Below are positions 5,137 to 23,395 of a stretch of 64,000 bases of DNA, one piece after another (positions within the stretch are counted from its first letter, which is position 1; the number at the start of each line of letters is the position of its first letter). Source of the stretch: Trypanosoma brucei (taxonomy: Eukaryota); the NCBI GenBank assembly GCA_000002445.1, contig CP000067.1:160001-224000 (forward strand), given 5' to 3'. A program made the translations under genes and the position numbers. Below the pieces are notes generated by a model, which did no database searches, had not been told where the DNA came from, and worked only from the letters and a program-made list of their open reading frames with translations.

Positions 5137-6933
5137 TTACAAACCTCCCTCACTCATTATTTGCTCCACTGCCCCGAGCACCACAGCAGCACATCGCGCC
5201 ATATCAACCCTCTGACACCTCTTAACTTGCGTAACTCCTCCAAGTGACTGTTCAAGCCAAAAAAGTGCAGGGAGCCCAATGAGCTCATGCGTGATGAGGC
5301 GCTCAAAGTTCGGTGAGTCCTTGCGATATCTCAACAAAGTTGATGTATCAAAACCAAATAATTCCTTACCGACAGATTCAAGGCCAAAAGCCCGCGCCGA
5401 TCGAATACCGTCCGACAACTCAAGTTGAACTAAAAAGCGCTCTTCCACCGACGCCTCAGGGCAGCTCGAGCATACGGAGGTTTCATTGCCAACTTTCCTT
5501 CCGCATGCAGAGCAGGCCGTATATGTCAGTGGATGTTTCACACCTTTTACCTTTGCTAGGACGGGTAGCGACTCGGATATTTCATCCAAATCAAAAACCA
5601 ACTGCACAATATCGGCGTTGTGTGTACCGCCTGCCACCTCCTCCTGTTTTGAAGTGTGTGGAGGCTGCTCCTCAGGGCGCTCATTACTGGCAACATCCAC
5701 CCGGCCTTTCGGGCTCATCACAAAGGCGCTACTTACACATCTACTAGAGGCAGTAATTCTACCACCGAAAATACGGACAAGAAAATTCGAAAAGCACCAC
5801 TGCTCACCAACAACTGGTACCACGATCGCCCCCATATCACCCCAGAGAGTTACTTCAATGGAATGCTGCAGGGAGTTTAGATCTCTCAACTCAACTACTG
5901 ACCTCCCAACATGTCCGTATCGCGTGTTAACTAATGTAGTTGGGGAGAACGCCGCCACCTCTCCATAAACGGAAACAATGTCCCCCACCTCGCAACACTC
6001 CACAAGGTACTGTACCGAACAAGAAAAAAACACGTACCGAGGATGCTTGGGAATAAGGTGTTCAGCTCCAGCACAGCATCCCGGAGTTGAAGACCAATCG
6101 AACACGTTCAGTTTTTCACTGTACCCGGATTCGCCTTTGTCCACAAAAGCAGGGTTTCGACATCGGATGCAATCACCAACATCAAACATATCACTAATCA
6201 CAGAACTGCCGAAGAATGACACAGAAACGGCGTCACCGTCAGCGTCGACTCCCACGCAATCCACAGCGAACCGCCCAAGTATTCCACTAGATGCAACTTG
6301 CCGTATTTTATTCTTCCACACCACGCGGAGGTAAACGACACAATCATTGAACCCTTTCCCCTCCGCTGTGACCACCTGTCGAATAGTCCGCGCGCCGTAG
6401 TCCCCAAGGGGAGTTGACTGCCACGTAGCGCTGCTGCTGCTGCACGTATTGGTGTAGCGGTATACAAGCGCGTTGGCTGAAAGACGGAAGAGATTGGAAT
6501 TAAATACTGGGTTTCCCAACAACGGGTACACTGTGTTAGAGTGGGTAATGGACAAAGGCACAACGACATTCCGCCCATTTCGGGCGGCAACTAAAGTGTA
6601 CTCTCTCAGCTTCACGCAATAACCGATTTCTATTTGAAATGTACTGACAAGTTCTTCCATCCCAGTGGAAGGGGGAATCACTAGCCATATCAGTGAGAGG
6701 GTGTCTGATAATGCGAGATAAAACAGCGATTGAGTAGAAGATTGCACTACTCTTTCCGGAAACCGTTGAATGTCAATTACCTGCAGCGAGGGGTTAGGCC
6801 ATCGTAACGTGAAAGTTTCACCACGGGAATCACCCGAAAGAGGGGCCGTCAGTGCGCTTTCGCAGAATCCTGTCGTTAATTGGAACATGTCTTCTTTGCC
6901 TTTGACTGTGTTTATGCAAAATAACTCGGCCAT
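5137..6933 (-). CDS. RPA70 (replication protein A large subunit)-like OB-fold protein with a C-terminal C4 zinc ribbon.
   Basis: Track ORF 5137..6963 begins with GTG; the first ATG is at 6933 (MAELFCINT...). A DBD-B-like segment reads ...VELRDLNSLQHSIEVTLWGDMGAIV.... A DBD-C-like zinc ribbon reads YTACSACGRKVGNETSVCSSCPEAS (C-x2-C-x10-C-x2-C), followed by RFLVQLELSDGIRSARAFG, resembling RPA70 YxxCxxxxCNKKV.... Confidence 0.6.
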   Translation of the reverse strand: MAELFCINTVKGKEDMFQLTTGFCESALTAPLSGDSRGETFTLRWPNPSLQVIDIQRFPERVVQSSTQSLFYLALSDTLSLIWLVIPPSTGMEELVSTFQIEIGYCVKLREYTLVAARNGRNVVVPLSITHSNTVYPLLGNPVFNSNLFRLSANALVYRYTNTCSSSSATWQSTPLGDYGARTIRQVVTAEGKGFNDCVVYLRVVWKNKIRQVASSGILGRFAVDCVGVDADGDAVSVSFFGSSVISDMFDVGDCIRCRNPAFVDKGESGYSEKLNVFDWSSTPGCCAGAEHLIPKHPRYVFFSCSVQYLVECCEVGDIVSVYGEVAAFSPTTLVNTRYGHVGRSVVELRDLNSLQHSIEVTLWGDMGAIVVPVVGEQWCFSNFLVRIFGGRITASSRCVSSAFVMSPKGRVDVASNERPEEQPPHTSKQEEVAGGTHNADIVQLVFDLDEISESLPVLAKVKGVKHPLTYTACSACGRKVGNETSVCSSCPEASVEERFLVQLELSDGIRSARAFGLESVGKELFGFDTSTLLRYRKDSPNFERLITHELIGLPALFWLEQSLGGVTQVKRCQRVDMARCAAVVLGAVEQIMSEGGL

Positions 6934-7193
6934 GCAAAAAAAAAAAGACGTGAGGGAGGCCACGAAAGTGGTAGCACCAAGTGCAATCAGTATAAAATAT
7001 CCAAAAAAAATACCTCAACCAGGGCACGTAGACGAAACGAATAGAATGCAAAATAAGTTAGAAGACATTCCAACTACAGATTTTCTTTCTTTAAAAGGAG
7101 CGAGGAAAATCCGTCACTATATATCTAGTCAACAACATAATTTCCCAATCTATGGTTTTCATGAACAATGAATTAAAGAAATTGAAACTGGGG

Positions 7194-8474
7194 CTAATGC
7201 GTCATGCGACGTGACACATCAAAGGGATACGGCTGTGGGCACAATTCGCGAGGAGCTGGGACGGCAGCAGAGCTCTCTACAACGGCTCCATGACTTGGGA
7301 GTGGAAACGCAAGCCGATCTAGCAGCTGCGCAAACATAGGCGATGGTTCACCACGGGTCAGCTCCCCTGTAAAGTTTGACACTGATTCAAAACTGGTGTT
7401 GCAAGTGGGAGTTTCTGAGGAAACAACTGCATCTGTTAAGGGTGAAAGCGCACCAGTCCTGTCAAGAGACAATTCCTTAGTTGTTTTCTCCAATTTAGAA
7501 TGGCACATATCACCTGAAACTGGGGTGCTAACCACCGCACCCTTTGAACAGCACGATGCTTCCACTGGCCGAGAGGCAATCCCATACCGAATTGTACCTG
7601 CGGAAGACGACCGTAATCCAGAACGGTAAACTTTTCCCCGGGGCGGAAACTCCACATTCGACGCATCAACAGCCTTTGCATGGGTGAGAGTTACTTCACT
7701 AACCGTCCTGCGGTGTTGCGACCGCGGTGGATTCTTAAATGCATTTGCTCCTGTTCTTTCAGTCCCTGACGTATCTTTGTTCTGCTGGGAATGTGAAACC
7801 TCGGTTGTTTTTTGCCCCTCCGCCTGCACATTTGTAGAGTGTTTGGATTTGGTCCTTGCCCCGATGCGTCTCAACAGCTTACGGCGAAGTGGTGACGATG
7901 AAAACATAGATGATTTTTTGTATGCAGTGGTGCACACCGCTAGTTCATCTTTGTACACATGGAACGCACTACCTTGCTGCTTGCTAGGGACTGACAAGGA
8001 GGCCGCCGCTCGCACCGTTTCCTTATGCTGCGGATACGGTTCCTTCTTCACAATGCTACCTTCCCCCTTCGTTCCACAGTAACGCTTCATTTGCTTGTTC
8101 CACACAGAAACTGGGGCCATAAACCAAGGTAGGTTTTCCTTTCCCCCCTGTGGTGGCCCCTGTGCTTCACACAATTCAAGAGAGTACCTCTGGAGCTCCG
8201 ACATTTCAGACTTTTCTAACTGTTTATGGGAGTTTCTACAACGTACACTACATTCTCTTTCACCCAGCTTAGATTGTGTTGACGGGCCGGAGAATGTTGA
8301 CTTTTGTGATGGTGCTCGCATAAGACCCGCCCTTGTGGTTGCCGCTCGCAGGCGCTGCCGGCACTCTTCACGCATCTTCTGCCGCCACGCTATCAAGTCT
8401 TGTTGAACCATCGATTCCTCACCACAACATTCCGCCGCTTTGGTCTTTTGCGAGGGCACCACACCATTTACCAT
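7194..8474 (-). CDS. Hypothetical protein, Ser/Thr/Lys-rich and low-complexity.
   Basis: Long minus-strand ORF co-directional with its neighbours. The track start at 8558 is TTG; the first ATG is at 8474 (MVNGVVPSQKTKAAE...). I recognised no domain. Confidence 0.55.
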   Translation of the reverse strand: MVNGVVPSQKTKAAECCGEESMVQQDLIAWRQKMREECRQRLRAATTRAGLMRAPSQKSTFSGPSTQSKLGERECSVRCRNSHKQLEKSEMSELQRYSLELCEAQGPPQGGKENLPWFMAPVSVWNKQMKRYCGTKGEGSIVKKEPYPQHKETVRAAASLSVPSKQQGSAFHVYKDELAVCTTAYKKSSMFSSSPLRRKLLRRIGARTKSKHSTNVQAEGQKTTEVSHSQQNKDTSGTERTGANAFKNPPRSQHRRTVSEVTLTHAKAVDASNVEFPPRGKVYRSGLRSSSAGTIRYGIASRPVEASCCSKGAVVSTPVSGDMCHSKLEKTTKELSLDRTGALSPLTDAVVSSETPTCNTSFESVSNFTGELTRGEPSPMFAQLLDRLAFPLPSHGAVVESSAAVPAPRELCPQPYPFDVSRRMTH

Positions 8475-9129
8475 CCTCCACCGGCCAACGACGCCGTTGT
8501 TTACACGGTTACGGGTGGAAAATGCAGTCGTAGGTAGCACTAATGAACAACGGGCCAAGTGAAATGAGGGTATGAGGAAAATAAAAAGATGGTCGAGTCA
8601 GCTGCAAGTTTGGAGGGAAATTGCGTGGAGTGATGGAACAAAACTGCCTAACCTAACAATGCCGGGTTAAAACTTATAAGTCAGCGACGATATACTGTTG
8701 TTGTTTTTCTTCTTGGTTCCTCATTTTTGTGTTTTTTTTTACTAAAAAAGAAAAAATGACGATCCACCGTTAGTTGCGCCCGCTGCCTTCACGGTAATGT
8801 CCTCTTTAACCTTTCCTTAAGTTAACGCTGCACATACACACACGCACAGAAACAGACTCTTCCTTTCTTTTCCACCCAAATGGAGGGCTCCGCTTTCACC
8901 CTTCCATCGAACCCGCACGGTACACACTCCAGAAAACCTTCGAACTGCTCGCATGCGCCACTGCTGACTAACAGAGACAGTCCACACCTCAACCACTACT
9001 TTCTCTCGCTTTCCTTCACCCAGAAATGACTCGTCAGGAATTTTCAGCAAAAACAGAAAAACGTACACATACACACATCGCAACCAAGGCGACGACATGT
9101 TAATCCCGAGAAGTCAATATCTCTCGGGA

Positions 9130-11586
9130 TTATCGCCACAGTTGTCTCACACCTTTACGCATGGCAAAGTAGCGTGCCACAAGGGAAAGGACACCAAAGC
9201 TGCATGTAAGAGCTATCAGCAGAGTCTTGTTGAAATCACTGTTAAGGAGGTCAAACTCCTTTCCAGAAGAGGTGCGCACGTAAAAGAGGTCCATACCTGA
9301 AACGAGTACATGGCAGGAGCTTTCAAGATTTGTTGGTCGCGTTGCAATTAGAGTGGGACGTGCCGCTCGATACCTGTGGGTAACTATAGCAGTGCTCGGA
9401 ATGATCACATGTGTTAACTGCCCGGCGCCGTCACCTAAGGAAACCTGCCCACCAGCAAGTAGACGGTTAAGCCCCACGGAGGCAACCCTCCCGGACGTAA
9501 ACACAAACAGAAGACTTTTTCGTGCGATGGCGCCGAAGGACGTCGTGACGCTCATTTTGGCAACCCCACCGCCGTGCATACCGAGCACAGATCCTACCAC
9601 AACAGGTGGCCATGTAGCACGGGAACTGAATACGCGCTTGTGCCGGGAGAAAAACGATGAGATCACCTGAGGTGGTGTGGCACCCGTATCCTTGAAAAGT
9701 ACTGGGCCAACCTCGGTTTCAAACATCTCCCACACGCCAAGGGAATGGCGCATCTTTTCCACATCCATAAAGTGGTAAAGCACAGCGTGCTCCACAATGA
9801 GGATATGCACCGGTCCTTCTACATTTCGATGACGCATGGACGCAAGAACGCTTCCTGTGACAACATCGACAGCTGTTACAACAAGAGTTGGCATCTCGTC
9901 GTCAACGGGCTCGTAGTACGCCACTGCGAGGACGTTGCGCGTTGGAAACTTGCGACGTACCTCCTCCATACCACTGCTTTTATTCGGAAACACACGAATA
10001 TTATTCACCAATGAAGTGCGGAGTGCATCCTCACCCGTAGCAACGGCAATAATGGGAAATGGCAGTTGCACGGTCCAGAGTGGCGTCACAGACGGAGATG
10101 ATGAGGCTAGATAACCCTTGATGGTTCCCGTTGTCATATTCAAACTGAATACGTGCAACTTGGAATGGGGGATTTTTCCGTTCACCGCAAGCGAACGCTT
10201 GACGTCAAATGTAGGTGCAACAATCAGTGAGTCTTCGTGCTTTGTTGCCTCTACCACAGCACCGGTGACGACATTTAAAATTACCCGAATCTTAACCACA
10301 CCAAAAGAAGCGAATAAAGTAGCAGTATCCGCTCCGGATACCTCTAATTTTTCGAACGCTATATTCTCCACGGAAGCGGCGGTTGTCATCTCCAGCACAG
10401 TTTTAGATACATCGACAAGCACCTTCATGTTACTTCCCATTTCTGCCAGAGGAATCATATATACTACGCCACGTGTAGAAATTCCCAAGGCTTCTTTTGA
10501 CAAACCAAACCGATCTTCCTTCGATGAACTGTCAAGTACAACTACCGCCGCGAGTCTTGAAAGGCCTTCCCACCGTTCCCACTTCACCCCTCCGTTCTCT
10601 CGCACCACAACAAGATGGTCATTGGGTGCGCGAACGAGAGCCCATGCGCCGTCTCCATCGCCCTGCACAGCAAGAAGTATAGCGGGAGCACCTTTTGTCC
10701 CGCCCTTTAAAGGAACGTGAATACTCTTAGCAGGGAACTTAACCATGAAACCGTTGGGATCCGCCTGGCCGATTACGTATCCCTGAAACACGCCAGCCGG
10801 GTTTGTCATAACCGACGCAGCACAACCACTACAGTCAATTACTTCCTGTTCCACAGCGCCGTTTGTCTCGCGTTGAGGGCCATGTCTTACAAGTGTTACC
10901 TTGTGTGAAGAATATGCAACTGCCTCGGCCGAAGAGGTAACGTCAATACCACCCACAGCATCAACGCCTGTAATTTCGACCGCACCCTTAAGGGAGTAGC
11001 GATCGGCAGATAACCGTCGCACCACCCAAAGGTGAGCGTCGCTAAGGCGTAGGCCCTTCACGTCCTCCCCAATGGGAAATTGACCGAGAGTCTTAACTTC
11101 TTCGTCATCAGAATTCATATCTAACTCGAAGATATGTGCGTTTTTACCGTCGAAGGCGGCAAATCTCGCCTTACTATTTGTGATGCTTTTACACGACTCC
11201 ACGTCTGCGCCGGCTGGCAAGAGCAATTTGAAAGTGGTTTCTACTGCTCCAGTCCCTGCGTTAAGAACGTGCACTGCTCCTGACCGGGAGGAGACAAAGA
11301 CAGAGCCGCCAGTTACTCCAATGCACACACGTGGTTCGCTAAAAACTTTCCTCCACAGTAACTCTCCGCTGTCAAGGGAAAGTGCGGCAACCGCCCCCTG
11401 AGCAGACCTTATGTACACGTTGTTAAGTTTCAGCTTAGGATGCAGTGCGGCGCCCTCCACCTGGCCGACAAAGCGCAAAATCCAGTCACGTAACCCCTGC
11501 TCATCTTCATGTATGGCTTGGATTGGAACAATGAGTCCACAAATGAGGCACAACTTGAGCAACAGAAAGTATAAAGTGGGCCGCAT
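9130..11586 (-). CDS. EMC1: ER membrane protein complex subunit 1 (EMC1).
   Basis: ATG at 11586. It has an N-terminal signal peptide (MRPTLYFLLLKLCLICGLIVPIQA). The N-terminal motif HEDEQGLRDW...FVGQV and VAALSLDSGELLWRKV matches human EMC1 YEDQVGKFDW...YVGKV / IAALNSRTGEILWRHV. The C-terminal YVRTSSGKEFDLLNSDFNKTLLIALTCSFGVLSLVARYFAMRKGVRQLWR matches the EMC1 C-terminus ([49 protein letters not shown]) with a single TM. Confidence 0.85.
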   Translation of the reverse strand: MRPTLYFLLLKLCLICGLIVPIQAIHEDEQGLRDWILRFVGQVEGAALHPKLKLNNVYIRSAQGAVAALSLDSGELLWRKVFSEPRVCIGVTGGSVFVSSRSGAVHVLNAGTGAVETTFKLLLPAGADVESCKSITNSKARFAAFDGKNAHIFELDMNSDDEEVKTLGQFPIGEDVKGLRLSDAHLWVVRRLSADRYSLKGAVEITGVDAVGGIDVTSSAEAVAYSSHKVTLVRHGPQRETNGAVEQEVIDCSGCAASVMTNPAGVFQGYVIGQADPNGFMVKFPAKSIHVPLKGGTKGAPAILLAVQGDGDGAWALVRAPNDHLVVVRENGGVKWERWEGLSRLAAVVVLDSSSKEDRFGLSKEALGISTRGVVYMIPLAEMGSNMKVLVDVSKTVLEMTTAASVENIAFEKLEVSGADTATLFASFGVVKIRVILNVVTGAVVEATKHEDSLIVAPTFDVKRSLAVNGKIPHSKLHVFSLNMTTGTIKGYLASSSPSVTPLWTVQLPFPIIAVATGEDALRTSLVNNIRVFPNKSSGMEEVRRKFPTRNVLAVAYYEPVDDEMPTLVVTAVDVVTGSVLASMRHRNVEGPVHILIVEHAVLYHFMDVEKMRHSLGVWEMFETEVGPVLFKDTGATPPQVISSFFSRHKRVFSSRATWPPVVVGSVLGMHGGGVAKMSVTTSFGAIARKSLLFVFTSGRVASVGLNRLLAGGQVSLGDGAGQLTHVIIPSTAIVTHRYRAARPTLIATRPTNLESSCHVLVSGMDLFYVRTSSGKEFDLLNSDFNKTLLIALTCSFGVLSLVARYFAMRKGVRQLWR

Positions 11587-11799
11587 CGCGTTTTGGGTCC
11601 CCTCTTCTCTCTCCTATTCTCTCGTATCCCCTTTGTTTTTGTTGTAAGTCTTTTTTTTCCCACCTCACTCTCTTCTTTTTTGGTTACCCCAATTTTTCTT
11701 TTTTTCTTTTACGTGTCGCTCCCCTTCTACACCTCCGTTCCAATAACCTTTCGGTATCAGCTGTGACAATTACGTTCCTTGATGATGCTACAGTGAAAT

Positions 11800-11960
11800 A
11801 ATACCAAAAAGAAAAAAATATTCGCAACAAAATAACAATAGGGAAAGAGTGCATTAATTTAAAAAGTGGACAAACAATCCTTACACGTCCCTTACGGCAA
11901 TCCCTTAGAACACGCAACTGATAAAGAAAAGGAAAAGTGTGACAAACGATGTAAACAGCC
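11800..11960 (-). promoter_or_regulatory. Sense-strand U-rich/polypyrimidine region between the hydrolase gene 3' end and EMC1; a candidate trans-splicing/polyadenylation control region.
   Basis: The plus strand is A/purine-rich here, so the minus (sense) strand is U/pyrimidine-rich. The 5' leader of EMC1 (11587-11760) is purine-rich on the sense strand. Confidence 0.3.
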
Positions 11961-12086
11961 TGAGACAGTAAGTCCAACGAATGGCTCCAATTCTTTTTCC
12001 TCCCTTCAATAGTAATAACAAACGGCCCCTTTTTTTCATTTTTTAGGTGCCCCCGCTGCTCCGTTACGCTGCATTTAAAAACAAAA

Positions 12087-13040
12087 CTATTCCTCCCCAC
12101 CTGTTGTCTCACCTAACAATTCCATCGCCTCGAGTAGAGTACGAGTGACAGCAGGTCCCTGAGCGCTAAGACCACTGATCCCGCCGCTGCGGTCACCCTC
12201 GAATAGTACAAATTTGGCTTTGGGAAAATGCTTCATAAAATCGCTCTTCGCCTCTCCTGAGAACTCCTCCGAGCCGCACTGAATGACTGTCACGGGTTTT
12301 GTGAAAATATTTTCCGGTCCCACATCGCTAAACCCACATAATGGCCCACGAAACTGAAACAACGTCTCGTTGAACTTAAATCCCACAGTTCCCTCCCGCT
12401 GCTCCACAGTCGAAAGAATAAGTGCCCTCTCCGCCTCATTAGGCACTCTTTTGTGCAAATGATGTTCGAGATCTGCGACGGAACTTATTTCTTTCGGGAT
12501 ATCTGAAATAAAAGAGGGAAGGGAGTAACGTGCCGGCTCACATGCCAGCAGATCTGATGGCCCATTTACAATAAGCACAAGGGAATCGATACCTGATTCA
12601 GGAGAGTGCAGTGCAGCCTGGCATGCGACAAGCGCACCAAACCCAATTCCAACCAACTTGGCATCCGCACGCAAGACTTGCTGTTGCAGAAGCATAATAT
12701 CAGCTGCACACGCCATTGTGAAGGCACGCCCTTCTTCGGGGCAGGGAAGTGATTTGGAATGGTTATGTCCCCGAAAGTCCACAGCAAATAACTCCAGTGG
12801 TACAAGTGGTGTAAGACCCGAACACGGTAATCTCCCGAGACTCTCATGCAAAAGCATTTGCCAGTAAGCAGAACTGCCGAACAGATCATGCAGAAGAATT
12901 GCTTTACTGGGCTTCCGGGAGTCGAGGTGCCACTTGAAGGTTGAAAGCCCATAATTCACCGGAAAGGGTCTTTCTTTAATTGGCAATGATGCAGAAGCAG
13001 CAACGTGGCCCCTCGAAAGCATGCGATTGATTACATTCAT
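12087..13040 (-). CDS. ABHD11-like alpha/beta-hydrolase fold protein; the nucleophile-elbow Ser is replaced (GIGFG), so it is a predicted pseudo-hydrolase.
   Basis: Track start at 13079 is TTG; the first ATG is at 13040 (MNVINRMLSRG...). ILLHDLFGSSAYWQ resembles the ABHD11 LHGLFGSKxNW oxyanion motif. The nucleophile-elbow position reads KLVGIGFGALVA instead of VGHSMGG. I verified this on the DNA: revcomp of 12601-12660 encodes ADAKLVGIGFGALVACQAAL. Confidence 0.7.
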   Translation of the reverse strand: MNVINRMLSRGHVAASASLPIKERPFPVNYGLSTFKWHLDSRKPSKAILLHDLFGSSAYWQMLLHESLGRLPCSGLTPLVPLELFAVDFRGHNHSKSLPCPEEGRAFTMACAADIMLLQQQVLRADAKLVGIGFGALVACQAALHSPESGIDSLVLIVNGPSDLLACEPARYSLPSFISDIPKEISSVADLEHHLHKRVPNEAERALILSTVEQREGTVGFKFNETLFQFRGPLCGFSDVGPENIFTKPVTVIQCGSEEFSGEAKSDFMKHFPKAKFVLFEGDRSGGISGLSAQGPAVTRTLLEAMELLGETTGGEE

Positions 13041-14020
13041 GTTGTACGACTCGCAGCTGCTAAATCTTGGACCAAACAAGATTAATTGTTGGAATGGTGC
13101 TTCCCAATTATTCTGTTTTCTTTTCTCGAAAATCCAGCCGATGACACAACAACTCTACTTGCAACCCTCTCGGTACACAGAACCAAACTCGTCCCCCTTT
13201 CCTTGTACCCCTTGTTGATCTCAACAATTGTTGCAAATTATAAAAGTGAAATAAAAAGTAAAAAAAACATAACGCCTCAAAAAGATTAACGGAAATTTGT
13301 CTCGCATTCAAACGTAAAACGCAAACGCAGAAGTTAAAAATGTGAAGGAAGAAAGAGGAGGAAAAAAAACGAGCAAACTTAAAACGCAACAGTGAAGTGG
13401 GTGCTACTAGTAGTTAACCCGTGATTCTGCCCGCACACGCGAATGGGCATACCTATCCCCACATCCTAACCAGCACTGAGTGCTTAAACTGCGGGTAAAT
13501 CAAAAAAAGAAAGAAAGAAGCATAACCAAAAAAAAGTGAAAGGAGTCTCTTTTATACCAACGACCCGCAACACGCCAACAGGTATTGGTTATTCTCATGT
13601 AACTTCTCCCACACTCTTGCATGCACGTCACATCCTCCTTCTGAATATCCTCTAACCCCCTGTCGCCTCCAACCACAAAATAACATCCGAAATCTAATGT
13701 GAATGAGCCGGAACCTTCGCTCCAGAAAAGGGAGCTGAACGGATTTTCCTTCCAGAGACAACTAAAAGCCTCAACAATGCAACGCACTTGCGAGAAGCAT
13801 GAGGAAGGAGGAGAGTTTTTTTTCCCCCGTGAAAAGCGCCCCGTGTCGACGAAACACTGCAACGCTAAAAATAAAAAAAAAACGCCCTCGTATGAATAAA
13901 TACAAAATACAATACACACGCAAACTTTCGCATCGCGGGCCCAGGAAACGTTTTCGGAAAGTTTATTGCGCAACTATATGCAGCATTCCACTACCCGCCT
14001 TCTTTTTTCTTTTATGATTC

Positions 14021-15436
14021 TCACTGAGAACCCTCCTCCGGCGGAAAAGTTGGAACCGTCAGTGCCGAACTGATCTGCAAAATGCGCGCACTCCAACCTT
14101 CATCGATGAAAAGAAATGTACCTATTCTTCCAAGCTTATGGGCAACAGCAGCCAACACTTGCGCTTGGTGTGGAATGCAGAACTTTTCGTATTGCTCAGT
14201 AAACCGTGTGTATCCATCCGCGACACGTTGTTTTAATGATTCCCGATGCGCCTCCCCTTCGGTATCGTCCCTCCCGGGGGCAGGTTGGGCTAAAGCGTTT
14301 GATTCCATCTTTTTGAGCTGCGTAGCAGCATTGATGCAGGAAATTGAAAGATGGGAAGCAAACCAAAGCAAATCGCCAACCTCCCTCAAGCCTTCAGCCT
14401 CTTCCTTTTTGCTCAGATACATGAGATGGGAATCAATTTGTTCTGTTATTGCATGAAGGGCTAACATTACCGGGTCGCTCACACCCGATGACGGATATCT
14501 GAGGTCGGCTACAGGGACACGGGACATCCCTCCCTCACGATCGTTCCACTCAATTACCGCCGTGTTCCGATCTATGCTCTTCACCACACCCTCACGCCCA
14601 CCGTTCGCCTCATACCGAACGAAACATCCCTCGTGACATGCAGCGGCGGGAAGGGGAGCTCCAGCCGTCCGCTTGCATATATTCCGAGTACTTCTCCGTT
14701 TGGATGGTTCACCTACAAACCGCCTTGTCATTTTTTCCACGACGGCGCCGCACATCTGTAGAAGCCGCACCATTTCGCCATGTTGCACGAGGATGGAGCT
14801 AAGACGGGAAGAGACGGGACCTTCTTGTTCCCGCACCATCGCGAAACTGCTTAGTTTTCCAAGGAGGCCCAAACACTTCATTTTCACAATAGAAAGTAGA
14901 GAATTTTTCCTTGCTGCCTCCCACGAATCGCGGAACTTTCTCCATCCGTCTTCGTCAAGCGTTGTGAAAGCCTTCATTAACTCACATTCATGAATCGCAC
15001 CGATATGGGATATGGCATTAAGAGTCAGTTGAAGTCGCCTTAGCCGTTGTCTTACCAGTGAGTTCTTCTTTGCGTCAAGGCCACTCACACCGTCAAAGTG
15101 CGCTGTAAGTTTGTCGATCGTCCCATTGACTTCCTTCTCTGGAATGGGTGGAAAGATTATACCTGGAAACTCTGTCAGCATCTGTGTAGCAAACCACTCA
15201 AAATCGGAATAACGATGCCATGTGCAATAGTCGATGTAGCCATCGCCTTTAATAAAGTTGCTCTGCGTACTGTTTGGGAAAATGAGAGGCGGATTCTGGT
15301 AACTTTCCAGAAAGCTGCGCGTCATCATTTTATACGTCCAGTGAGAAAAGAAGAGGACCTTATCATTCTCAGCGAACACGCGCTCCGCATTTGCAACATA
15401 GAACTCCAGCGGTGGCTGAGCGGGGTTTTCGGACAT
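14021..15436 (-). CDS. PX-domain sorting nexin (Vps5/SNX1-like, probably PX-BAR).
   Basis: Track start is TTG; the first ATG is at 15436 (MSENPAQPPLEFYV...). PX motif: ...HRYSDFEWFATQMLTEFPGIIFPPIPEK... (R[YF]SDF...P..PP[LI]PEK). The ~470-aa length and helical C-terminal half are consistent with a BAR domain. Confidence 0.75.
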   Translation of the reverse strand: MSENPAQPPLEFYVANAERVFAENDKVLFFSHWTYKMMTRSFLESYQNPPLIFPNSTQSNFIKGDGYIDYCTWHRYSDFEWFATQMLTEFPGIIFPPIPEKEVNGTIDKLTAHFDGVSGLDAKKNSLVRQRLRRLQLTLNAISHIGAIHECELMKAFTTLDEDGWRKFRDSWEAARKNSLLSIVKMKCLGLLGKLSSFAMVREQEGPVSSRLSSILVQHGEMVRLLQMCGAVVEKMTRRFVGEPSKRRSTRNICKRTAGAPLPAAACHEGCFVRYEANGGREGVVKSIDRNTAVIEWNDREGGMSRVPVADLRYPSSGVSDPVMLALHAITEQIDSHLMYLSKKEEAEGLREVGDLLWFASHLSISCINAATQLKKMESNALAQPAPGRDDTEGEAHRESLKQRVADGYTRFTEQYEKFCIPHQAQVLAAVAHKLGRIGTFLFIDEGWSARILQISSALTVPTFPPEEGSQ

Positions 15437-15778
15437 TGCTCTTTGTTCAAGTTGTGAATGAGAGTGCGGCAAGGGGAGAACAAGAAAAAAAATGGGTTGG
15501 CGTGAGGAAAAAACAAAAACGAGTACAAGCCCTACGTTCGGTGCCGTTTCGTCTCCACTCCGTTCTCCCTTTCTATGAGTCCATCCACCTTTATCACGGG
15601 AGTCACGGCCTCATATACAATTGGACCATACCTGACACCTCGGGACTGCAGAACCACGGACACTTGTCGACAGTTTACATAAACACAACTGAGAGCAACA
15701 TTGCCACAGCAGGTGGAGTACGAATTCGGTAAGTCCCCTGGACTCTCAACATAACAAGTACAGAGGTATCTCCCTCCT

Positions 15779-15817
15779 CCCCCCCCCCCCCAAAAAAAAA
15801 AAATAATAATAATAATA
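15779..15817. repeat. Homopolymer block C13, A12 then (ATA)n.
   Basis: cccccccccccccaaaaaaaaaaaataataataataata in the intergenic region between the 2503-aa gene and the sorting nexin gene. Confidence 0.9.
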
Positions 15818-15883
15818 CAACTTCCCCACAACACAGCGACAATAATAAAAGTAAAGCATATAAAATTAGAAGACATTGAAATG

Positions 15884-18800
15884 TTACTTTGCCTTCACAT
15901 TATGATGGATCACACCATATGAAATATGCAATTGGGTACTGGGGCCCGCCGCGTCTCCGTTCGAGCCCTTGACAGCCTCCGCAAGTGCCTTTCCGCCGCC
16001 TCCACCAACAAAAGACAAACACCTCTTGCTAAACACATTACATTCACTCGCTGTAAGGGTAAAGATATTGCTCAATACGTGATGTACTCCACGCGCGAGG
16101 AGGAGGATCGAAACAACGTAATTCTTCTCGTAAAAAAAGTCCATGTAAGCCCTGCACGTGTCACACCCTTGCTCACGACAGTATGACGCGTCATTGGTGG
16201 CCATGGCTATGAGTACTGTTTGAAGATGATCTAGAGAGAGCTCGGCAATGACGGAGGGCTTGATAATGTCAGAGAAGGACCCACATGCACTCACCAAAAC
16301 ATTGGCATAAGCCTTGTTAGCAAAAATACGATGCACATAGGCTAGAGATGGCCTGCTTGAAGAGCCCTGCCCATCCTTGACGAAGGTAACGATTTCAGCG
16401 TTAGACGTTTTCGTTCGTCCTCCACCAAAGATATACTGCAGCGCTTCCTCGTTCTCGCCAAACGGATCAATAATATAGGCCACTCCGTTTGATTGAGGCT
16501 TCCCTGTACGCAACGCCGTCTTCTGCCGTAAGTTTAAAACTGATAACTCTCTGTGAACGGCCATAAAAGACGAAAGCTCAGGAAGCTGCTCGAAGGGAAG
16601 TGGCTGAAGGATGGGATCCAGGCAGAGATATAGGCTGCATGATGCCGCTCGTTGAGATGAGAATAAATCACTGAAGTCCCCAAGCAAAGGAAATACCACT
16701 GTCCTCACCTTCTCGAGGTACGAGTGAAAAACCGACCCCCACTTCGCATCAGGAGACCGCTCACCGGCAGAAGGTCCGGCGGCTACTTCTACTTTCTTGA
16801 GACGCTTAAGTTCCTCAATCTGAGATGTACACTCACGGAGAGCCCCCATGTCCAACTCCGCCCGTCGGGAACACACCTCACCGTCCTGTCTTCGAAAAGC
16901 CACTAGGAAGTACGATGTGGTTCCCTCGCGCACAGCACTGAGGGTGCATATGTCCGACAGCAGAGGGTCAGCCTTATTAGGCTCCGCCGGCCATGCTCCC
17001 ACAAGGTCAAAACGCCTCCACATGCTAGAAATCTCCATGAGATTGTTCCGCAGGGAATCAAAAGCTTTGGTGTTGACCAGGTAGGGCGCATCCATCTTTG
17101 TCTTGTTTACCAAACGAATAAGTTCAGCCTCAGGTGTGGTGTGAGTCAAAGAAGTGACAAGATCGCTCACAAAACCGTACATAGCCGCCGTTTCCGCGTA
17201 CTCGATGGCCGTCCCAGCAGCGTTAAAGTTACCAGACAACATAAAATTGTGAGCCAAATAAATGTAACATTTCGCCATTTGTTTGTACTCAAACATGTGT
17301 CTCGCTTGCCGAACAGCTGCGAGCAGAAGCATCTGCAAGTTACTATTAATTTCTATCCATGCGTTCGCAGCAAGGCGATTTGGATCTTCAACATGAATAC
17401 TAGCGAGTTTCGCAGCGCGGCGTTCCGCTACCGACATCCTCCGAGGAACTGATGGGTGTGGTACAGAAATCGTGATTTTTGACCACTGTGCCGTTAGAAA
17501 TGCGTTCTCGCGTTCATTTACGTCCCCACTGAAAGTAGTGTTTACTGAAGCCTCAGGACTTTCCATCGCTCTGGTAGCCGCCGTAAGCCTCCGGCTAAAC
17601 TCACTTAGTGCAGCGATGATGCTGGCTTCCATTTGAACAGAAGATACGGTGCCAACACCACCCATCGCACGATAGAGCAAGGCTTCAATGTGTGGCGTAG
17701 AAGTGTTGACCATATAGTTAAGTGGAATGCCGAAGTGACTTAGAGAACTCGCAACCTCATTATCATGACCACAAATCCCCTCCTGTGAGGGTAAAGCCGC
17801 ATTAGCGCTATCGTTAAGCATCCTACTCTGCTCGTAGAGAGCGGGGTCACGCATGTAACTGGCAACATAGCCCTCCAACTCCACCGGTCCCCCAGTGGGA
17901 ATGCCCAGGTCCGCGACCGACAGCGCGCTGAAACGTTGTGATATAAAGTTCTTCAGCAACTTCCGTTCCAAGCAGTTGCGTGCACACATTACTAAAACCT
18001 CATCGTACGCCGCTGCCGCGGAAGGACACGTGGTAACGTCACCCCCCAGAGCTAAGACTGGAACGACAGCGTTGACCTCGCTCTGTAACATGTCTGCCAC
18101 TTTAAGGATCTCAGAGTACTCATTGAACAATCGCTCGGGTAACGCTTTGTCCACACCCCCCTTCCCAGTTGCCAGCACGTCATCCACGCACGGCCGCAAA
18201 ATCTGACGCACCCGAAGCGACACCAGTCGACTCTTCCAATCCGCGTATTGGTCCAGCTGCGAGCAAACTTCATCAAGCAATCCCTTCACATCACCCTCTC
18301 GGGGCCCTCCAGGAAATAGTGTGTCAAAGGGCCGACGAAGAAATGCAACAAACCGAGGGGCGCACCTCTGTAGAAGAACCTTATGGCACATTTCGGTTGT
18401 GTCCTTCTCGATGTCACCTTCACCAACTTCTTCAAGGCGCCACAGCAACCGCGTCAAAAGCTGGCGTACGAAAGCTACGGCCTCGGCGACCTTATCACAA
18501 GACAGGAAACCGTCGATATGCACCAATTGCAGTTCCGTCCACGCAGCAACCGTGAGTGAAGTGGGAAGCCCCGTTCCTTCGCCATCACCCATATCTTCAG
18601 TTTTTGTCTCTTCTTCAGTACTGTCCTCCGCACTCGCTTCCTCACTTGTAGGGGGGTCCCATCGACCCCGAAGAATACTAGCACGAGCCTCCAGCAGATG
18701 ACACCGTGCCAACGCACCTCTATCTCCCGTCCGAGAAGCACACTGTTTTACCTTTGCCTTCCACAGTAAAGCTTCTTGCACGCGACCAAGGGTAAAAAGG

Positions 18801-21800
18801 TCCTCGGCTTCACTCAGAATAAACCGATGTGTACTCCCAACAAAGTTGCTGAAATCTAGTGGTCCAGAGGACGGCCACGGTACTGACAGTGCAGGAGTCT
18901 CCGTGGATAAAAGCACCTCATTAACGCTCGACCAGCATTCCGCATCCGGCGGTTCTACGTTATACGCATCACACACCTCAGCCCATCCACATCGTGCAGC
19001 TGATATGAATCCCTTTAGACGAACAGCTCGCACGGCAGCCCTCCCGCGAGGATCAGACTCATCATATCGCCAGTATATGCAGAACTCGACCCAGCTCAAA
19101 ATGAGAAACACATACAGCTCCATCCCATCTTCAAGGAGGTAATCACAAACATCTAACAACATCCCCCACAGTCTATGCGTGTTCAAGGCGAGACCGTCTT
19201 TGCACAGATCACGTATGATAATCGCATGTTGAGGATTGGCATGAAACCCCCGCCATTCGTACAATGTCTCCGGAAGGTGCAACGGGTCCACTTTTACGCC
19301 TCTGATATCCTCTCCTCTGTGAATCTGCAGGAGAACTGCAACAACTTTCCAGCACGATAAGACATAATAGAGAAGGGTCGATGCACAACACCGCTTGTAG
19401 ACAAACGGCCTACTAGCGCATGGCGTGATCGGAGCCACTACAAACAAGAAGTAGAGAAGGCGCAGAGCCGTCAAAGTCTCCAGCAGGGACGGTAAGTCTT
19501 TTTGCTTATCGACCGGAACAACGTTTGTGCAGGTGAGACTCTGAGCAATGGCAAATGTCCGCCCCACCATCGTGCCTGTGAGAGCGTGACGGAGGGCAGG
19601 TGAAACATCTGTATTGCGCCGACCAGCACTTTTATTTAACCACGCACTGAGTAGCATACTATCCACGCGTTCCAGGTCGCTTAGTCCATTCATAAGCAGT
19701 GATATAAGTTCGCTTTTCGTAACGGCATTGCGTCCTGCAAGCCATTCCGCCATGCTGAGAACCAAATCGGCTCTTTGAACGGGTTTACCTTCCAATATCT
19801 TCAATGCCTGATTCCATGCTCTCATGCCCTCGGAGATATCATGCGCGTTCTTCGCAACGGCAACGCACACCGCTGCCTCCACCTCTGCGTCCACAGTTCT
19901 AGCTTTCTCATGCAACTCTGATGTCGAAAGCCTCAACTTCGTACGGAGTTGCGCCTCGTATGCACACAAGGATCCATGATATCTTGACGGAAGCACGCGC
20001 AGAAGCTCATGCATTTGTTTTATCCCCTCGTCATAATTTTCGTCCTCCAGCAGGCTTGTAAAAAGATAGCCGCCTAGTGTGCTGGTCAGTGTGCATAAGT
20101 CATCGAATTCAGCGTCACACCTGCCATTGGTCCGCGACCGTAAAAATTTATTAACTATCCTCAAGATAGGTGGAGAAAGGAGAATTCGAAGCCCCGACTG
20201 CAGCACTCGATAAGAAGCCCGAGAAATGGATGTGGCAACGCGGCACAAAGCGCGATAAGCCTTTGTTATTTGGGTAATTTGCGCTTCTGGTATGGAGCGG
20301 GATGCCGCCACCGCGCTGTTTGTTATGGCCACAAGAACCCTTTTCTCAAACTCAAGACGATGCGTCCTGTCGGCTCCAACCCCGAGATGCAAGAAAAGCG
20401 TGGCCTCATGAAGTAAAATGTCTGCGTACCAATACCAATCCATGTCACTTGGCTTCGGTTGCATCCCACCATTCGAATTGGCCACGACGGAGCCCTTTAA
20501 GTTACCTAAATACATGACTGATGGGGACGGTTGCTGAGTCGAAACAACGGTGCTTGCTAAAGATTTATCCCTACCTGAATTCACAGTTATAAGAGATTTG
20601 GTGCCCCACCCAAGTTTGCCTTCATGGTACAACCGATCGGCGGTACGGCAGATTTCGAGCGTTACTCTTTCATTTTGGGGTATTTGCACGCTGTGAGATG
20701 CCAATCGAGCACACAACTCTACTGATGGGTCGGCTCTAAGCATATCTAAGCATTCCGTGTTAACCAAATGCCGTCTCTCGTCGAGTTCAATAGGTCCATT
20801 CAAGCGACCCAACAAAAAGAGCAACTGCTCTTGCGGGTGAGTAGAGGTTTCGTGGGTTCTATCAAGAAGTCGATTGATGCACGGAAGAATAAGAGAGAAA
20901 TTCTTCCTCCGGGATGGTAGTGACCATTTGCTCATTATTTGGTGGCAGGCCTCCGCCGCCTGCTTGAGTACACTATTATGTGCCTCACATATGGGATACA
21001 AATAAGTTTTGCGCATTGTTTCGGCCAAAGACTCACAGTGAAGCTCACCATTAACTTCTCCCTTCGCACTGATGTACGTCTGTACAAGCGACATAACGTA
21101 TCCAAAGCCGATACTGTCAAATAGTTTGTATTCACCCATGGGATCAGCGTTTACTTGACCCAATGCAAGAGAAAGGTCACGTAGGGTTGCTGCAGCAGGA
21201 AGAAACAAGCCCTTTTTGAACATTTCAGTGTTTTGATTGATCAACGCAGTGCATGCGTTAAGGACAATCCACCCCCCACCGTATCCTGCTGCGCTCAGCC
21301 TAGCACCAAGTTGTGCTGCTTTGGATATGTGAGACATACCATCTTCATGGGTGGCATCACCTAAGGCACGGGGAGATGTTTGTCCTCGCTTTTCCAGCAA
21401 CTCCGACATAACCAAATGAGCTTCAGCCTTCATGGCGAGCAAGTCTCTAGCGAAGCCATTATCTGGAACAGCAATCCGAGCGAGACCCTCCGCAGCTTTA
21501 ATAATAATCTCATCAACCGCAGGATCATTAGTCGTCGAAGCCTCCTTGAGTAACAGGTAGTAAACATTAGGAGTACTAAAATCTTCGAATGTAAACGGTA
21601 CCCGTTCATCAACGGTTTCGCGTACAACGTCTTGTTTTCGACTTTTTCCGCCTTTATTTTTCTCCCCGTTTACCGATACGTTCTTCGTCCTCGTCTCGGC
21701 TACGGATTCCGTGCGAGTAATCGGAGGAAGTCTATCAGCCGCCGCCTGCAAAAGAGGGACACGATTAGCCGATGCTAGCCGAGCTTGCTCGATAAGATGA

Positions 21801-23395
21801 ACGATATGATCCCCATCCGAAATAAAGGAAGTGCCCTCATGTGCCTTCCGCACCACGGCACGGCGCCTTAACCACAGAAGGGCAAACTCCATGGGATAGG
21901 CGGAGGTATTGTCCGCACTTCCCGACAACTGCTCTACTGCCAAAGCCTTGTCAATCTGTTCAATGGTAGCATTCATATTTTCCTCTTCAAACTCCGCCAA
22001 TGCTGATTCATATGCCGCACGAACAAAAAGTCGGTTTAGCCTGCTGTTGCACAACCTTAGCAGCATCACTATTCTACTCAATGTGAGACGCAACCTCCCA
22101 CGAGTTTGGGGTTGCAAGAGCGGAAGACACAAATTCCACAGCACCACACAACCAACCTCAATTGCGTACATGCTTTCCGATACATCTACAGACGTACGAG
22201 CGGCATCTATCACGTCCTCGACGTGGCCGATGCATGCAAACAGCTTTTCCGCCATATTCTTTGTAAGATAACCAGCGTCTAACGCCTTGCTTGCGGCCAG
22301 CGAGCCACAGTCACGAGCCCTCATGATGGCTTTGGCGTATTCAGTGAACAATCGGGCGCGGGCATTATCGCCATTCAGAAGTTTTGGTAAAATTGTATTA
22401 CACGTGTCATCCGCACCGCACATGGCTAACGCAAGGGCAACCTCACTGAGTACATCTGAGATAATCGCAGGATCGCGGAACGCCGCCTCTGCTTCAGCGG
22501 CCTTACGGCCCTTTTGTTTCACTTCCTTCTTCTCGGGGTCGCCGAGGAGTTTTTCAGTTGCCTGAATGAGCTCCTGCTTAGCGCTTGAGTCATCTGTTGC
22601 ACCACAGAAAAATGAATACACAGCAGCAAGTGCCTGAAACACAGGTCTGGTATTATCTTGCTTCGTCCGGTTTGATGATGTACTGGCTGTGAAGGCAACC
22701 TGAATGCGGTAAAATTGTAATTGAAGTCGCTCAGAACCCGTCTTTGCAACAAGTTCTGCACCGGACACAATCTGATTGAGCGCATCCTGAACCCTTCCGG
22801 TAGCCCGCAAGCAGACGGCATAACGCACAATCCACTGCAGCTGAGTATGAATTCCTCCAAGTGAAAGCTTTTCATGCAAAGTTACAACCAACACCAGAAT
22901 ATCCAACATGCTGTTGCTTATTATTCGACCGCAAACATCTTGAATAGACAGCCAGAGGTAGTCGATACCTGCGATAAGGGTCTCCGGTTCCTTCGGCCAC
23001 TCCTCTAGTACAATCTTTATACCTGAAACAATCTTCGTCGCGCAACGAATGTGCGCTGCCAGTTTAGCCCTACCACGCAGCGAGTGAGGCACACCACTCA
23101 AAGCTACGAGAGCATCACAATAAAGAGCCCGTGCCTCCAGTGCCTTCGTTTGAGCCCGCCTCCCTGTGTACTTCTTCAAACAAGCCCCTGCTAGTGCCCA
23201 CTCCTTCTTCTCAATGGCAGCCTCCGTGCAGAGAATGTACAACTCACTCGATACATTCCGCTCCAGTGACGGGTCCCCTTCAGAAGACTCTTCAAACTCT
23301 TGCAACATTTTGTACGCTGCGTGCACGGCTTCAGCCGTGTAACTGCTGCGACTGGCACGCAGTTGTTGTTTCACCGCATTGGATACATACGCCAT
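15884..23395 (-). CDS. Very large (2503 aa) hypothetical protein, mostly alpha-helical in appearance, with no recognised domain.
   Basis: Uninterrupted 7.5-kb minus-strand ORF with an ATG start (MAYVSNAVKQQL...) and mixed, non-repetitive composition. The many short plus-strand ORFs across it are antisense noise. Confidence 0.8.
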   Translation of the reverse strand: MAYVSNAVKQQLRASRSSYTAEAVHAAYKMLQEFEESSEGDPSLERNVSSELYILCTEAAIEKKEWALAGACLKKYTGRRAQTKALEARALYCDALVALSGVPHSLRGRAKLAAHIRCATKIVSGIKIVLEEWPKEPETLIAGIDYLWLSIQDVCGRIISNSMLDILVLVVTLHEKLSLGGIHTQLQWIVRYAVCLRATGRVQDALNQIVSGAELVAKTGSERLQLQFYRIQVAFTASTSSNRTKQDNTRPVFQALAAVYSFFCGATDDSSAKQELIQATEKLLGDPEKKEVKQKGRKAAEAEAAFRDPAIISDVLSEVALALAMCGADDTCNTILPKLLNGDNARARLFTEYAKAIMRARDCGSLAASKALDAGYLTKNMAEKLFACIGHVEDVIDAARTSVDVSESMYAIEVGCVVLWNLCLPLLQPQTRGRLRLTLSRIVMLLRLCNSRLNRLFVRAAYESALAEFEEENMNATIEQIDKALAVEQLSGSADNTSAYPMEFALLWLRRRAVVRKAHEGTSFISDGDHIVHLIEQARLASANRVPLLQAAADRLPPITRTESVAETRTKNVSVNGEKNKGGKSRKQDVVRETVDERVPFTFEDFSTPNVYYLLLKEASTTNDPAVDEIIIKAAEGLARIAVPDNGFARDLLAMKAEAHLVMSELLEKRGQTSPRALGDATHEDGMSHISKAAQLGARLSAAGYGGGWIVLNACTALINQNTEMFKKGLFLPAAATLRDLSLALGQVNADPMGEYKLFDSIGFGYVMSLVQTYISAKGEVNGELHCESLAETMRKTYLYPICEAHNSVLKQAAEACHQIMSKWSLPSRRKNFSLILPCINRLLDRTHETSTHPQEQLLFLLGRLNGPIELDERRHLVNTECLDMLRADPSVELCARLASHSVQIPQNERVTLEICRTADRLYHEGKLGWGTKSLITVNSGRDKSLASTVVSTQQPSPSVMYLGNLKGSVVANSNGGMQPKPSDMDWYWYADILLHEATLFLHLGVGADRTHRLEFEKRVLVAITNSAVAASRSIPEAQITQITKAYRALCRVATSISRASYRVLQSGLRILLSPPILRIVNKFLRSRTNGRCDAEFDDLCTLTSTLGGYLFTSLLEDENYDEGIKQMHELLRVLPSRYHGSLCAYEAQLRTKLRLSTSELHEKARTVDAEVEAAVCVAVAKNAHDISEGMRAWNQALKILEGKPVQRADLVLSMAEWLAGRNAVTKSELISLLMNGLSDLERVDSMLLSAWLNKSAGRRNTDVSPALRHALTGTMVGRTFAIAQSLTCTNVVPVDKQKDLPSLLETLTALRLLYFLFVVAPITPCASRPFVYKRCCASTLLYYVLSCWKVVAVLLQIHRGEDIRGVKVDPLHLPETLYEWRGFHANPQHAIIIRDLCKDGLALNTHRLWGMLLDVCDYLLEDGMELYVFLILSWVEFCIYWRYDESDPRGRAAVRAVRLKGFISAARCGWAEVCDAYNVEPPDAECWSSVNEVLLSTETPALSVPWPSSGPLDFSNFVGSTHRFILSEAEDLFTLGRVQEALLWKAKVKQCASRTGDRGALARCHLLEARASILRGRWDPPTSEEASAEDSTEEETKTEDMGDGEGTGLPTSLTVAAWTELQLVHIDGFLSCDKVAEAVAFVRQLLTRLLWRLEEVGEGDIEKDTTEMCHKVLLQRCAPRFVAFLRRPFDTLFPGGPREGDVKGLLDEVCSQLDQYADWKSRLVSLRVRQILRPCVDDVLATGKGGVDKALPERLFNEYSEILKVADMLQSEVNAVVPVLALGGDVTTCPSAAAAYDEVLVMCARNCLERKLLKNFISQRFSALSVADLGIPTGGPVELEGYVASYMRDPALYEQSRMLNDSANAALPSQEGICGHDNEVASSLSHFGIPLNYMVNTSTPHIEALLYRAMGGVGTVSSVQMEASIIAALSEFSRRLTAATRAMESPEASVNTTFSGDVNERENAFLTAQWSKITISVPHPSVPRRMSVAERRAAKLASIHVEDPNRLAANAWIEINSNLQMLLLAAVRQARHMFEYKQMAKCYIYLAHNFMLSGNFNAAGTAIEYAETAAMYGFVSDLVTSLTHTTPEAELIRLVNKTKMDAPYLVNTKAFDSLRNNLMEISSMWRRFDLVGAWPAEPNKADPLLSDICTLSAVREGTTSYFLVAFRRQDGEVCSRRAELDMGALRECTSQIEELKRLKKVEVAAGPSAGERSPDAKWGSVFHSYLEKVRTVVFPLLGDFSDLFSSQRAASCSLYLCLDPILQPLPFEQLPELSSFMAVHRELSVLNLRQKTALRTGKPQSNGVAYIIDPFGENEEALQYIFGGGRTKTSNAEIVTFVKDGQGSSSRPSLAYVHRIFANKAYANVLVSACGSFSDIIKPSVIAELSLDHLQTVLIAMATNDASYCREQGCDTCRAYMDFFYEKNYVVSILLLARGVHHVLSNIFTLTASECNVFSKRCLSFVGGGGGKALAEAVKGSNGDAAGPSTQLHISYGVIHHNVKAK

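Follow-up and report, generated by a model that had tools for sequence, protein, structure and literature searches.

The window analysed here is a stretch of 64,000 nucleotides of Trypanosoma brucei (contig CP000067.1, positions 160,001 to 224,000), and its minus strand carries at positions 12087–13040 the gene Tb927.4.600, whose product keeps the fold of an esterase and has lost the catalytic residues. The ATG is located at 13038–13040 and the TAG stop codon at 12087–12089. The published TrypTag primers for tagging Tb927.4.570,.590 and.610 have perfect matches in the window, at 5180–5219, 9133–9212 and 14064–14103, respectively; the open reading frame (ORF) under study lies between.590 and.610 and is therefore Tb927.4.600. 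The adjoining ORF of 818 residues is EMC1, and TbEMC1 corresponds to Tb927.4.590 (PMC9113592). Calculated from the ATG, the product has a mass of 34458.2 Da, equal to that listed for Tb927.4.600 (34.458 kDa). A longer ORF starting from a TTG at 13079 was rejected because the orthologues begin at the ATG equivalent with MN(F/L)V and the ATG-based mass fits the database. The gene is also designated as Tb04.5E12.1160 and UniProt Q57ZY8 and is annotated as "hypothetical protein, conserved", and databases already label its orthologues as "AB hydrolase-1 domain-containing". No main-text mention of any of the three identifiers was found in the literature searched, and literature searches on ABHD11 in Trypanosoma and on inactive hydrolase folds in kinetoplastids gave nothing relevant. 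The features of the gene are as follows.

12087..13040, minus strand: complete coding sequence of Tb927.4.600, 317 residues, 34.46 kDa, with an ABHD11/YbfF-type alpha/beta-hydrolase fold.

12966..13040, minus strand: N-terminal ~25 residues MNVINRMLSRGHVAASASLPIKERP, a likely mitochondrial presequence, basic and poorly conserved.

12915..12935, minus strand: family signature K/R-W-H-x-D-x-R (RWHxDxR), residues 36–42, in the loop before beta3; not present in the active bacterial YbfF-like relatives.

12861..12896, minus strand: oxyanion-hole motif LLHDLFGSSAYW, residues 49–60, in which the canonical HG is HD (Asp52); it aligns with ILHGLFG of the YbfF-like proteins P0053 and P0054 and with the marine esterase of Protein Data Bank (PDB) entry 7c4d.

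12795..12833, minus strand: family-specific insertion RLPCSGLTPLVPL, residues 70–82, consensus LPxxGxxPxxPL, between helix A and beta4; a gap in P0053, P0054 and 7c4d.

12756..12779, minus strand: DFRGHNHS, residues 88–95, the retained DxRNHGxS motif of the ABHD11/YbfF type; family members and active relatives alike conserve R90 and H92.

12624..12656, minus strand: nucleophile elbow LVGIGFGALVA, residues 129–139, with Gly133 (codon 12642–12644) in place of the catalytic Ser.

12567..12569, minus strand: Val158, at the place of the post-beta6 Asp of YbfF-type enzymes (vDiaP motif); it aligns with the D of ADIAP (7c4d), IADIA (P0053), IVDIS (P0054) and LIDSI (metagenomic protein P0051).

12168..12200, minus strand: loop after beta8, residues 281–291, EGDRSGGISGL, where the His of GAGHW would be expected; His is absent from it, and no other stretch of the family is as poorly conserved.

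12087..12140, minus strand: C-terminal extension TLLEAMELLGETTGGEE past the last core helix, a hydrophobic-GLLGE motif followed by an acidic tail; conserved in the family, while the bacterial relatives end earlier.

The Pfam Abhydrolase_1 match to Tb927.4.600 is marginal (26.9 bits versus a cutoff of 25.8). The AlphaFold2 (AF2) model calculated from a 42-sequence alignment of the family described below has a predicted local distance difference test (pLDDT) score of 94 and a predicted template modelling score of 0.92; it replaced a run from just 8 Trypanosoma sequences with a pLDDT of 64. In the model, strands and helices follow one another as in a canonical alpha/beta hydrolase, with an eight-stranded sheet, an elbow turn between beta5 and helix C, and a helical cap at residues 162–229. 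In a HMMER search of the PDB with the family profile, 7c4d was the best match with an E value of 2.9e-23, eleven orders of magnitude ahead of other subfamilies, and the top matches of Foldseek agree with those of the profile. The nearest similarity is thus to YbfF-like esterases, with which the motifs HGLFGSxxNW, DxRNHGxS and R..L in the cap are common. YbfF is the bacterial counterpart of ABHD11. The earlier note, made from the DNA letters, had called the protein ABHD11-like on the basis of an LHxLFGSxxxW oxyanion motif; residues 49–60 fit this pattern, and at the subfamily level the label is justified.

The same note had read LVGIGFGALVA at the elbow directly in the DNA, and the codons of residues 129–139 (TTG GTT GGA ATT GGG TTT GGT GCG CTT GTC GCA, with GGG for Gly133) confirm this. 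In single-sequence HMMER alignments against PDB esterases, GIGFG sits on GWSYG or GHSMG; in the profile alignment with 7c4d it also falls on the elbow of the active esterase, and the MAFFT alignment with P0053 and P0054 gave the same placement. GIGFG is located on the G-H-S-M-G elbow by these three kinds of alignment, and the Ser is therefore replaced by Gly133. The AF2 model likewise has the elbow at the turn between beta5 and alphaC (strand 127–132, helix 134–145), so that sequence, profile and structure model all agree on the position that the earlier note had proposed to check. As to a nucleophile elsewhere, the protein has no G-x-S-x-G, and its only Ser-rich stretch, GGISGLS (residues 286–292), is a loop after beta8 and not a strand–helix elbow.

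The other members of the triad are also absent. The Asp after beta6, which is presumably the catalytic acid of YbfF, is Val158, and at the alternative position after beta7 no acid is conserved in the family. No His is present in residues 272–317, where active relatives have GAGHW after beta8. The question raised earlier of whether Asp and His are retained is thus answered for both: neither is, and the oxyanion HG has become HD as well. With a carboxylate from Asp52 in the oxyanion hole, an oxyanion intermediate would be disfavoured. The whole catalytic machinery is lost, so that the original pseudoenzyme call, which had predicted the lack of serine-hydrolase activity from the loss of the Ser, is supported by every catalytic position and is an understatement.

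When 1.84 billion representative proteins were searched exhaustively by HMMER with a Trypanosoma profile, only 47 proteins were found at E ≤ 1e-3. All members down to an E value of ~1e-7 carry G-x-G-x-G (once G-x-N-x-G), and the residue at the nucleophile position is Gly, once Asn, in about 46 family members. The 42-sequence alignment shows no variation at G131, G133 and G135. The first matches with a hydroxyl nucleophile are P0051 (GHTMGG, E value of 5e-6), followed by two bacterial YbfF-like proteins with E values of ~1e-4. The named sources are seven Trypanosoma species, Lotmaria, Phytomonas, Trypanoplasma borreli, Neobodo designis, Papus ankaliazontas and Perkinsela. These taxa span Trypanosomatida, Parabodonida, Neobodonida and Prokinetoplastina, i.e. 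all major lineages of Kinetoplastea, and orthologues across the class share the Ser loss, which the earlier note had left to be examined in related species. No diplonemid or euglenid name was found among the 30 clusters looked up, and most clusters are unnamed environmental sequences. A second, word-indexed search with the family profile added only Trypanoplasma and unrelated bacterial hydrolases. From this distribution, the loss of the Ser is placed before the radiation of Kinetoplastea.

In Prokinetoplastina (Papus P0037; Perkinsela and relatives P0045/P0075, P0046 and P0048), the oxyanion HG is kept and the nucleophile is already Gly; the change of the oxyanion Gly to Asp is therefore later than the Ser loss. 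This order suggests that the catalytic elements were lost stepwise, with the Ser first and the oxyanion Gly later. An insertion of ~10 residues after beta6 is present in P0045, P0046 and P0048 and not in Papus P0037. P0051 (309 residues, from a metagenome contig of 1.1 kb of the Joint Genome Institute) has a partial family signature (AHQD). Its elbow, GHTMGG, carries Thr where the nucleophile would be, and the post-beta6 Asp and the His (GGHYVYAEHP) are both kept. It is an apparent intermediate by sequence and could mark an active sister lineage of the dead family.

Per-column conservation was calculated from 45 full-length family members. Residues 281–290, the old His loop, are the least conserved decile with an index of 0.13, and the post-beta7 loop is next with 0.20. 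The best conserved stretches are residues 31–42 (0.63), 81–90 (0.68) and 131–140. Residues conserved in the family and not in the active relatives are Y30, R36, W37, H38, D40, R42, D52, L71, P72, P78, G133 and S153. In the RWHxDxR loop, D40 is invariant, H38 is present in 96% and W37, R36 and R42 in 89% of these members, while D52 is found in 87%. In the insertion, P72 and P81 are conserved at 96% and 93%, respectively, and the model shows a short extra strand at residues 76–78. In the C-terminal extension, L303 is conserved at 84% and a short strand is modelled at residues 309–311. The alignments indicate that the constraint has moved from the old active site to the family-specific elements, the RWHxDxR loop and the LPxxGxxPxxPL insertion. 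By canonical topology, the loops entering beta3 and beta4 would lie side by side on the N-terminal edge of the strands, opposite to the catalytic face.

The gene is under purifying selection: the ratio of nonsynonymous to synonymous substitution rates (dN/dS) is 0.14 at a dS of 0.48 for the unsaturated pair of T. theileri and T. melophagium, and 0.165 at a dS of 1.0 for T. conorhini and T. c. marinkellei. The codons for Gly133 in five Trypanosoma species are synonymous (GGG/GGC/GGT/GGC/GGC). The T. congolense IL3000 orthologue (L005:49-1100, CAEQ01000368.1) is annotated as two short genes of 145 and 122 residues. The model P0016 is truncated there because the frame is lost right at the GIGFG elbow, through an extra T in GGGTTTTGG; it is regained by another shift ~35 codons on, and the remainder is conserved up to the stop codon. 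These frameshifts are probably a homopolymer assembly error and not the mark of a pseudogene.

Tb927.4.600 is also expressed and imported into the mitochondrion. In the ImportOmics study, it was detected with 10–14 peptides and 36–55% coverage (Peikert Suppl. Data 2). Depletion of ATOM40 by RNA interference lowered its amount to ratios of 0.67–0.85, and it is listed in the importome. Both TargetP and MitoFates are positive for it (Peikert Suppl. Data 2), in agreement with the predicted presequence, whose residues 1–10 have a pLDDT of 57 in the AF2 model. Codon 18 within this presequence (12987–12989) encodes Ser in the window and Pro in the near-identical P0001, which comes from Logan read assemblies only; S18P is a strain or subspecies polymorphism. 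The protein was already present in the mitochondrial proteomes of 2009 and 2013. It carries no flag for the membrane, outer-membrane, respiratome, carrier, ATPase, mitoribosome, RNA-editing and MRB1 inventories. The mitoproteome compilation of 2017 lists it under "unknown", with detection in procyclic form and in three bloodstream-form data sets. Tb927.4.600 is a genuine, nuclear-encoded and fairly abundant mitochondrial protein of both life-cycle stages, and it is probably soluble, with the matrix as its probable location. Loss of catalytic residues, expression and long purifying selection are thus found together, as expected for a pseudoenzyme.

Around Tb927.4.600 the large ORFs all run along the minus strand, the arrangement of a kinetoplastid polycistron. 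The order on this strand within 5137–23395 of the window is Tb927.4.570 (608 residues),.580 (454 residues), EMC1 (.590),.600, a PX-domain protein (.610, 483 residues) and a CFAP46-like TPR protein (2503 residues). T. theileri, T. melophagium, T. conorhini and T. cruzi marinkellei share the gene order from the CFAP46-like gene to.580 without change, and the synteny of the CFAP46-like gene, the PX gene, the Tb927.4.600 orthologue and EMC1 is kept across these Trypanosoma. P0019 (1218 residues, from a kinetoplastid assembly) is a gene model joining the dead hydrolase (residues 1 to ~290) and EMC1. This fusion is almost certainly a mis-annotation that merged two neighbouring genes, and it shows that the adjacency of the hydrolase and EMC1 reaches outside Trypanosoma.

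Comparison with known systems defines what was kept and what was gained. With E. coli YbfF and the marine esterase 7c4d, Tb927.4.600 shares H-x-LFGS..W, DxR.H..S, the Asp of helix B, ER..L in the cap and FP before beta8. In contrast to these enzymes, which have an active Ser/Asp/His triad and a GHSMGG elbow, it has Gly133, Val158, no His and HD for HG. The kinetoplastid family alone adds an RWHxDxR loop, an LPxxGxxPxxPL insertion of ~10 residues, a GLLGE extension and a mitochondrial presequence. Human ABHD11 belongs to the same alpha/beta-hydrolase subfamily as YbfF. It is mitochondrial and carries an N-terminal targeting signal; it is an active enzyme that has GxSxG and a Ser/Asp/His triad (PMC7313976). 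Tb927.4.600 resembles it in the mitochondrial location, the N-terminal targeting signal and the motif pattern already pointed out in the earlier note, and differs from it in lacking GxSxG and the triad.

The third-best structural neighbour is ATPTT2 of Tetrahymena thermophila (PDB 6ynx chain t), which is also a significant match of the family profile (E value of 3.7e-11). ATPTT2 was described as having an ABHD11/YbfF-like fold with an "inactive catalytic triad" and a purely structural role, in which it anchors the IF1 dimer on ATP synthase, and its homologues were described as ciliate-specific. Its nucleophile Ser is likewise replaced by Gly (elbow GHGIGG). ATPTT2 has a size of ~43 kDa with extensions and is membrane-associated in Fo, whereas Tb927.4.600 has a size of 34 kDa, its own signature motifs, and no place in the membrane and ATPase inventories or the solved complexes. 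The two families have probably lost catalysis independently, by convergence, and ATPTT2 is the closest known dead analogue and the strongest precedent. ABHD5/CGI-58, the NDRG family and neuroligins are further dead alpha/beta-hydrolase folds that act through protein–protein interaction. They belong to other subfamilies and other compartments and have known partners, and no sequence relationship with them was seen beyond the superfamily.

The catalytic apparatus is lost and the gene is kept under purifying selection, which therefore points to a pseudoenzyme that would work by binding. A non-catalytic protein with a binding function is, in our judgement, highly probable for Tb927.4.600; a protein–protein adaptor would account for about half of this expectation and a ligand binder with a retained pocket for about a quarter. 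The ABHD11/YbfF-type fold was fully kept and the catalytic apparatus was lost before the radiation of Kinetoplastea, and the gene has since been maintained by purifying selection, most likely as a binding pseudoenzyme. Its likeliest mode would be that of an adaptor, assembly factor or regulatory subunit of a mitochondrial partner. The partner might be contacted through the RWHxDxR loop, the LPxxGxxPxxPL insertion and the C-terminal GLLGE strand, elements that by standard topology would be on the side of the sheet opposite to the old active site.

The phyletic pattern adds information on the possible partner. Phytomonas, Perkinsela and bloodstream T. brucei all possess the protein, and its function would therefore be one common to all kinetoplastid mitochondria. 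This distribution makes a role connected with complexes I, III or IV less likely, a point that draws partly on general knowledge of what these organisms lack. In the most specific form of the model, which we put forward tentatively, a dead ABHD11-type hydrolase would have been recruited before the radiation of Kinetoplastea to a mitochondrial machine common to all kinetoplastids. There it would serve, through a newly evolved RWHxDxR/LPxxGxxPxxPL surface, as an essential adaptor or assembly factor. Candidate machines are those for expression of kinetoplast DNA (kDNA), the mitoribosome, ATP synthase with its IF1 control, and the upkeep of lipoylated dehydrogenases. Such a recruitment would parallel, independently, that of ATPTT2 in ciliates.

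Several observations weigh against the adaptor role. No experiment or data set seen shows a binding partner. Tb927.4.600 is not listed in the older complex inventories, has no entry in the supplements of the kDNA-maintenance screen and of the map by localisation of organelle proteins by isotope tagging (LOPIT), and is in no solved kinetoplastid complex, its best PDB sequence match having an E value of 0.007. Membership of such a complex was sought by both sequence and profile searches of the PDB, and no kinetoplastid chain was returned. The patch opposite to the active site follows from canonical topology and not from measured coordinates. Furthermore, the invariance of Gly133 and the strong conservation of Asp52 indicate that some constraint still acts on the old catalytic face, which may have a ligand-binding or an unconventional catalytic role. 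The backbone angles at a nucleophile elbow are strained and best satisfied by Gly, and the invariance of Gly133 therefore needs no functional pocket.

The most probable alternative is that the old acyl pocket under the cap holds a small molecule without turnover, with the protein acting as a sensor, carrier or protector. Candidate ligands by analogy might be an acyl or lipoyl group, acyl-coenzyme A or acyl carrier protein, or a cationic ligand drawn by Asp52, for example in protecting the lipoylated E2 of a 2-oxoacid dehydrogenase. Human ABHD11 is linked to the 2-oxoglutarate dehydrogenase complex. The conservation of Asp52 and Gly133 fits a pocket of this kind, as do the retained cap elements common to active relatives (P200, R205 and L195) and the full cap domain modelled with high confidence, and ABHD11 is itself mitochondrial (PMC7313976). 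However, cap residues 161–190 and 211–250 are weakly conserved (0.21–0.34), the pocket-shaping loops after beta7 and beta8 are the most variable parts of the protein, and Asp52 is not universal as Prokinetoplastina have HG. We consider such a ligand binder less probable than an adaptor.

An enzyme of a non-canonical type (lyase, decarboxylase or acyltransferase type) might instead work without a Ser nucleophile, by means of H38, D40, H51, D52, R90 and H92. Some enzymes with the alpha/beta-hydrolase fold catalyse non-hydrolytic reactions, and D40, H92, H38, H51, R90 and D114 are invariant or nearly so. But the Ser-dependent relatives conserve H51, R90, H92, D114 and R205 just as strongly, which marks these as structural or subfamily residues rather than a novel catalytic set, and H38 and D40 belong to the pre-beta3 loop, which by topology would be on the N-terminal side of the strands and off the catalytic face. 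With the nucleophile, acid and base all missing and an Asp at the oxyanion hole unfavourable to oxyanion chemistry, this activity is quite unlikely.

Still less likely, by a small step, is that Tb927.4.600 is the kinetoplastid counterpart of ATPTT2, i.e. a peripheral and sub-stoichiometric subunit of ATP synthase that docks IF1. The profile match to ATPTT2 is significant, the same Ser-to-Gly change is found at the elbow, ATPTT2 is the anchor of IF1, and the taxa of the family presumably all keep ATP synthase, Phytomonas and Perkinsela included. The match is limited, however, to positions 87–239 and does not include the RWHxDxR/HD part, a change from Ser to Gly is a simple convergent one, and the described restriction of ATPTT2 homologues to ciliates speaks against a counterpart. 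No PDB chain has the sequence of Tb927.4.600; solved T. brucei ATP synthase structures are among the PDB entries. The protein is also missing from the ATPase subunit list and from the membrane proteome. The PDB and inventory checks thus gave no sign of membership in F1Fo ATP synthase, although a loosely bound sub-stoichiometric subunit could escape them.

The gene might be suspected of being an artefact (a sequencing error, as the earlier note had allowed for, or a mis-assigned elbow) or a decaying pseudogene from the marginal Pfam score and the T. congolense model truncated at the elbow, but this is refuted by the synonymous Gly codons in five species (a change of GGG to a Ser codon takes two substitutions), the family-wide G-x-G-x-G, the dN/dS of 0.14–0.17, the abundant peptides in several proteomes, and the return of the T. 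congolense frame after ~35 codons, which is typical of homopolymer assembly errors.

Dead alpha/beta hydrolases are already well known from ATPTT2, ABHD5, NDRGs and neuroligins, and short of a partner or a phenotype, Tb927.4.600 is an ordinary addition to the list of pseudoenzymes. What is new is that all catalytic elements are missing from a mitochondrial family with its own motifs that is spread throughout Kinetoplastea and selectively maintained, and that this family is linked to ATPTT2. About half of the trypanosome genes are "hypothetical", and one of them is now described as encoding an abundant mitochondrial protein of both stages that is kept even in the reduced genome of Perkinsela. 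Counts of serine hydrolases, for example by activity-based profiling, should leave Tb927.4.600 out, and inhibitor design should not aim at it as such an enzyme; W37, H38, D40, R42 and D52 are available as residues for mutagenesis. Together with the ciliate ATPTT2, it provides a second and probably independent case of a mitochondrial YbfF-like esterase turned non-catalytic.

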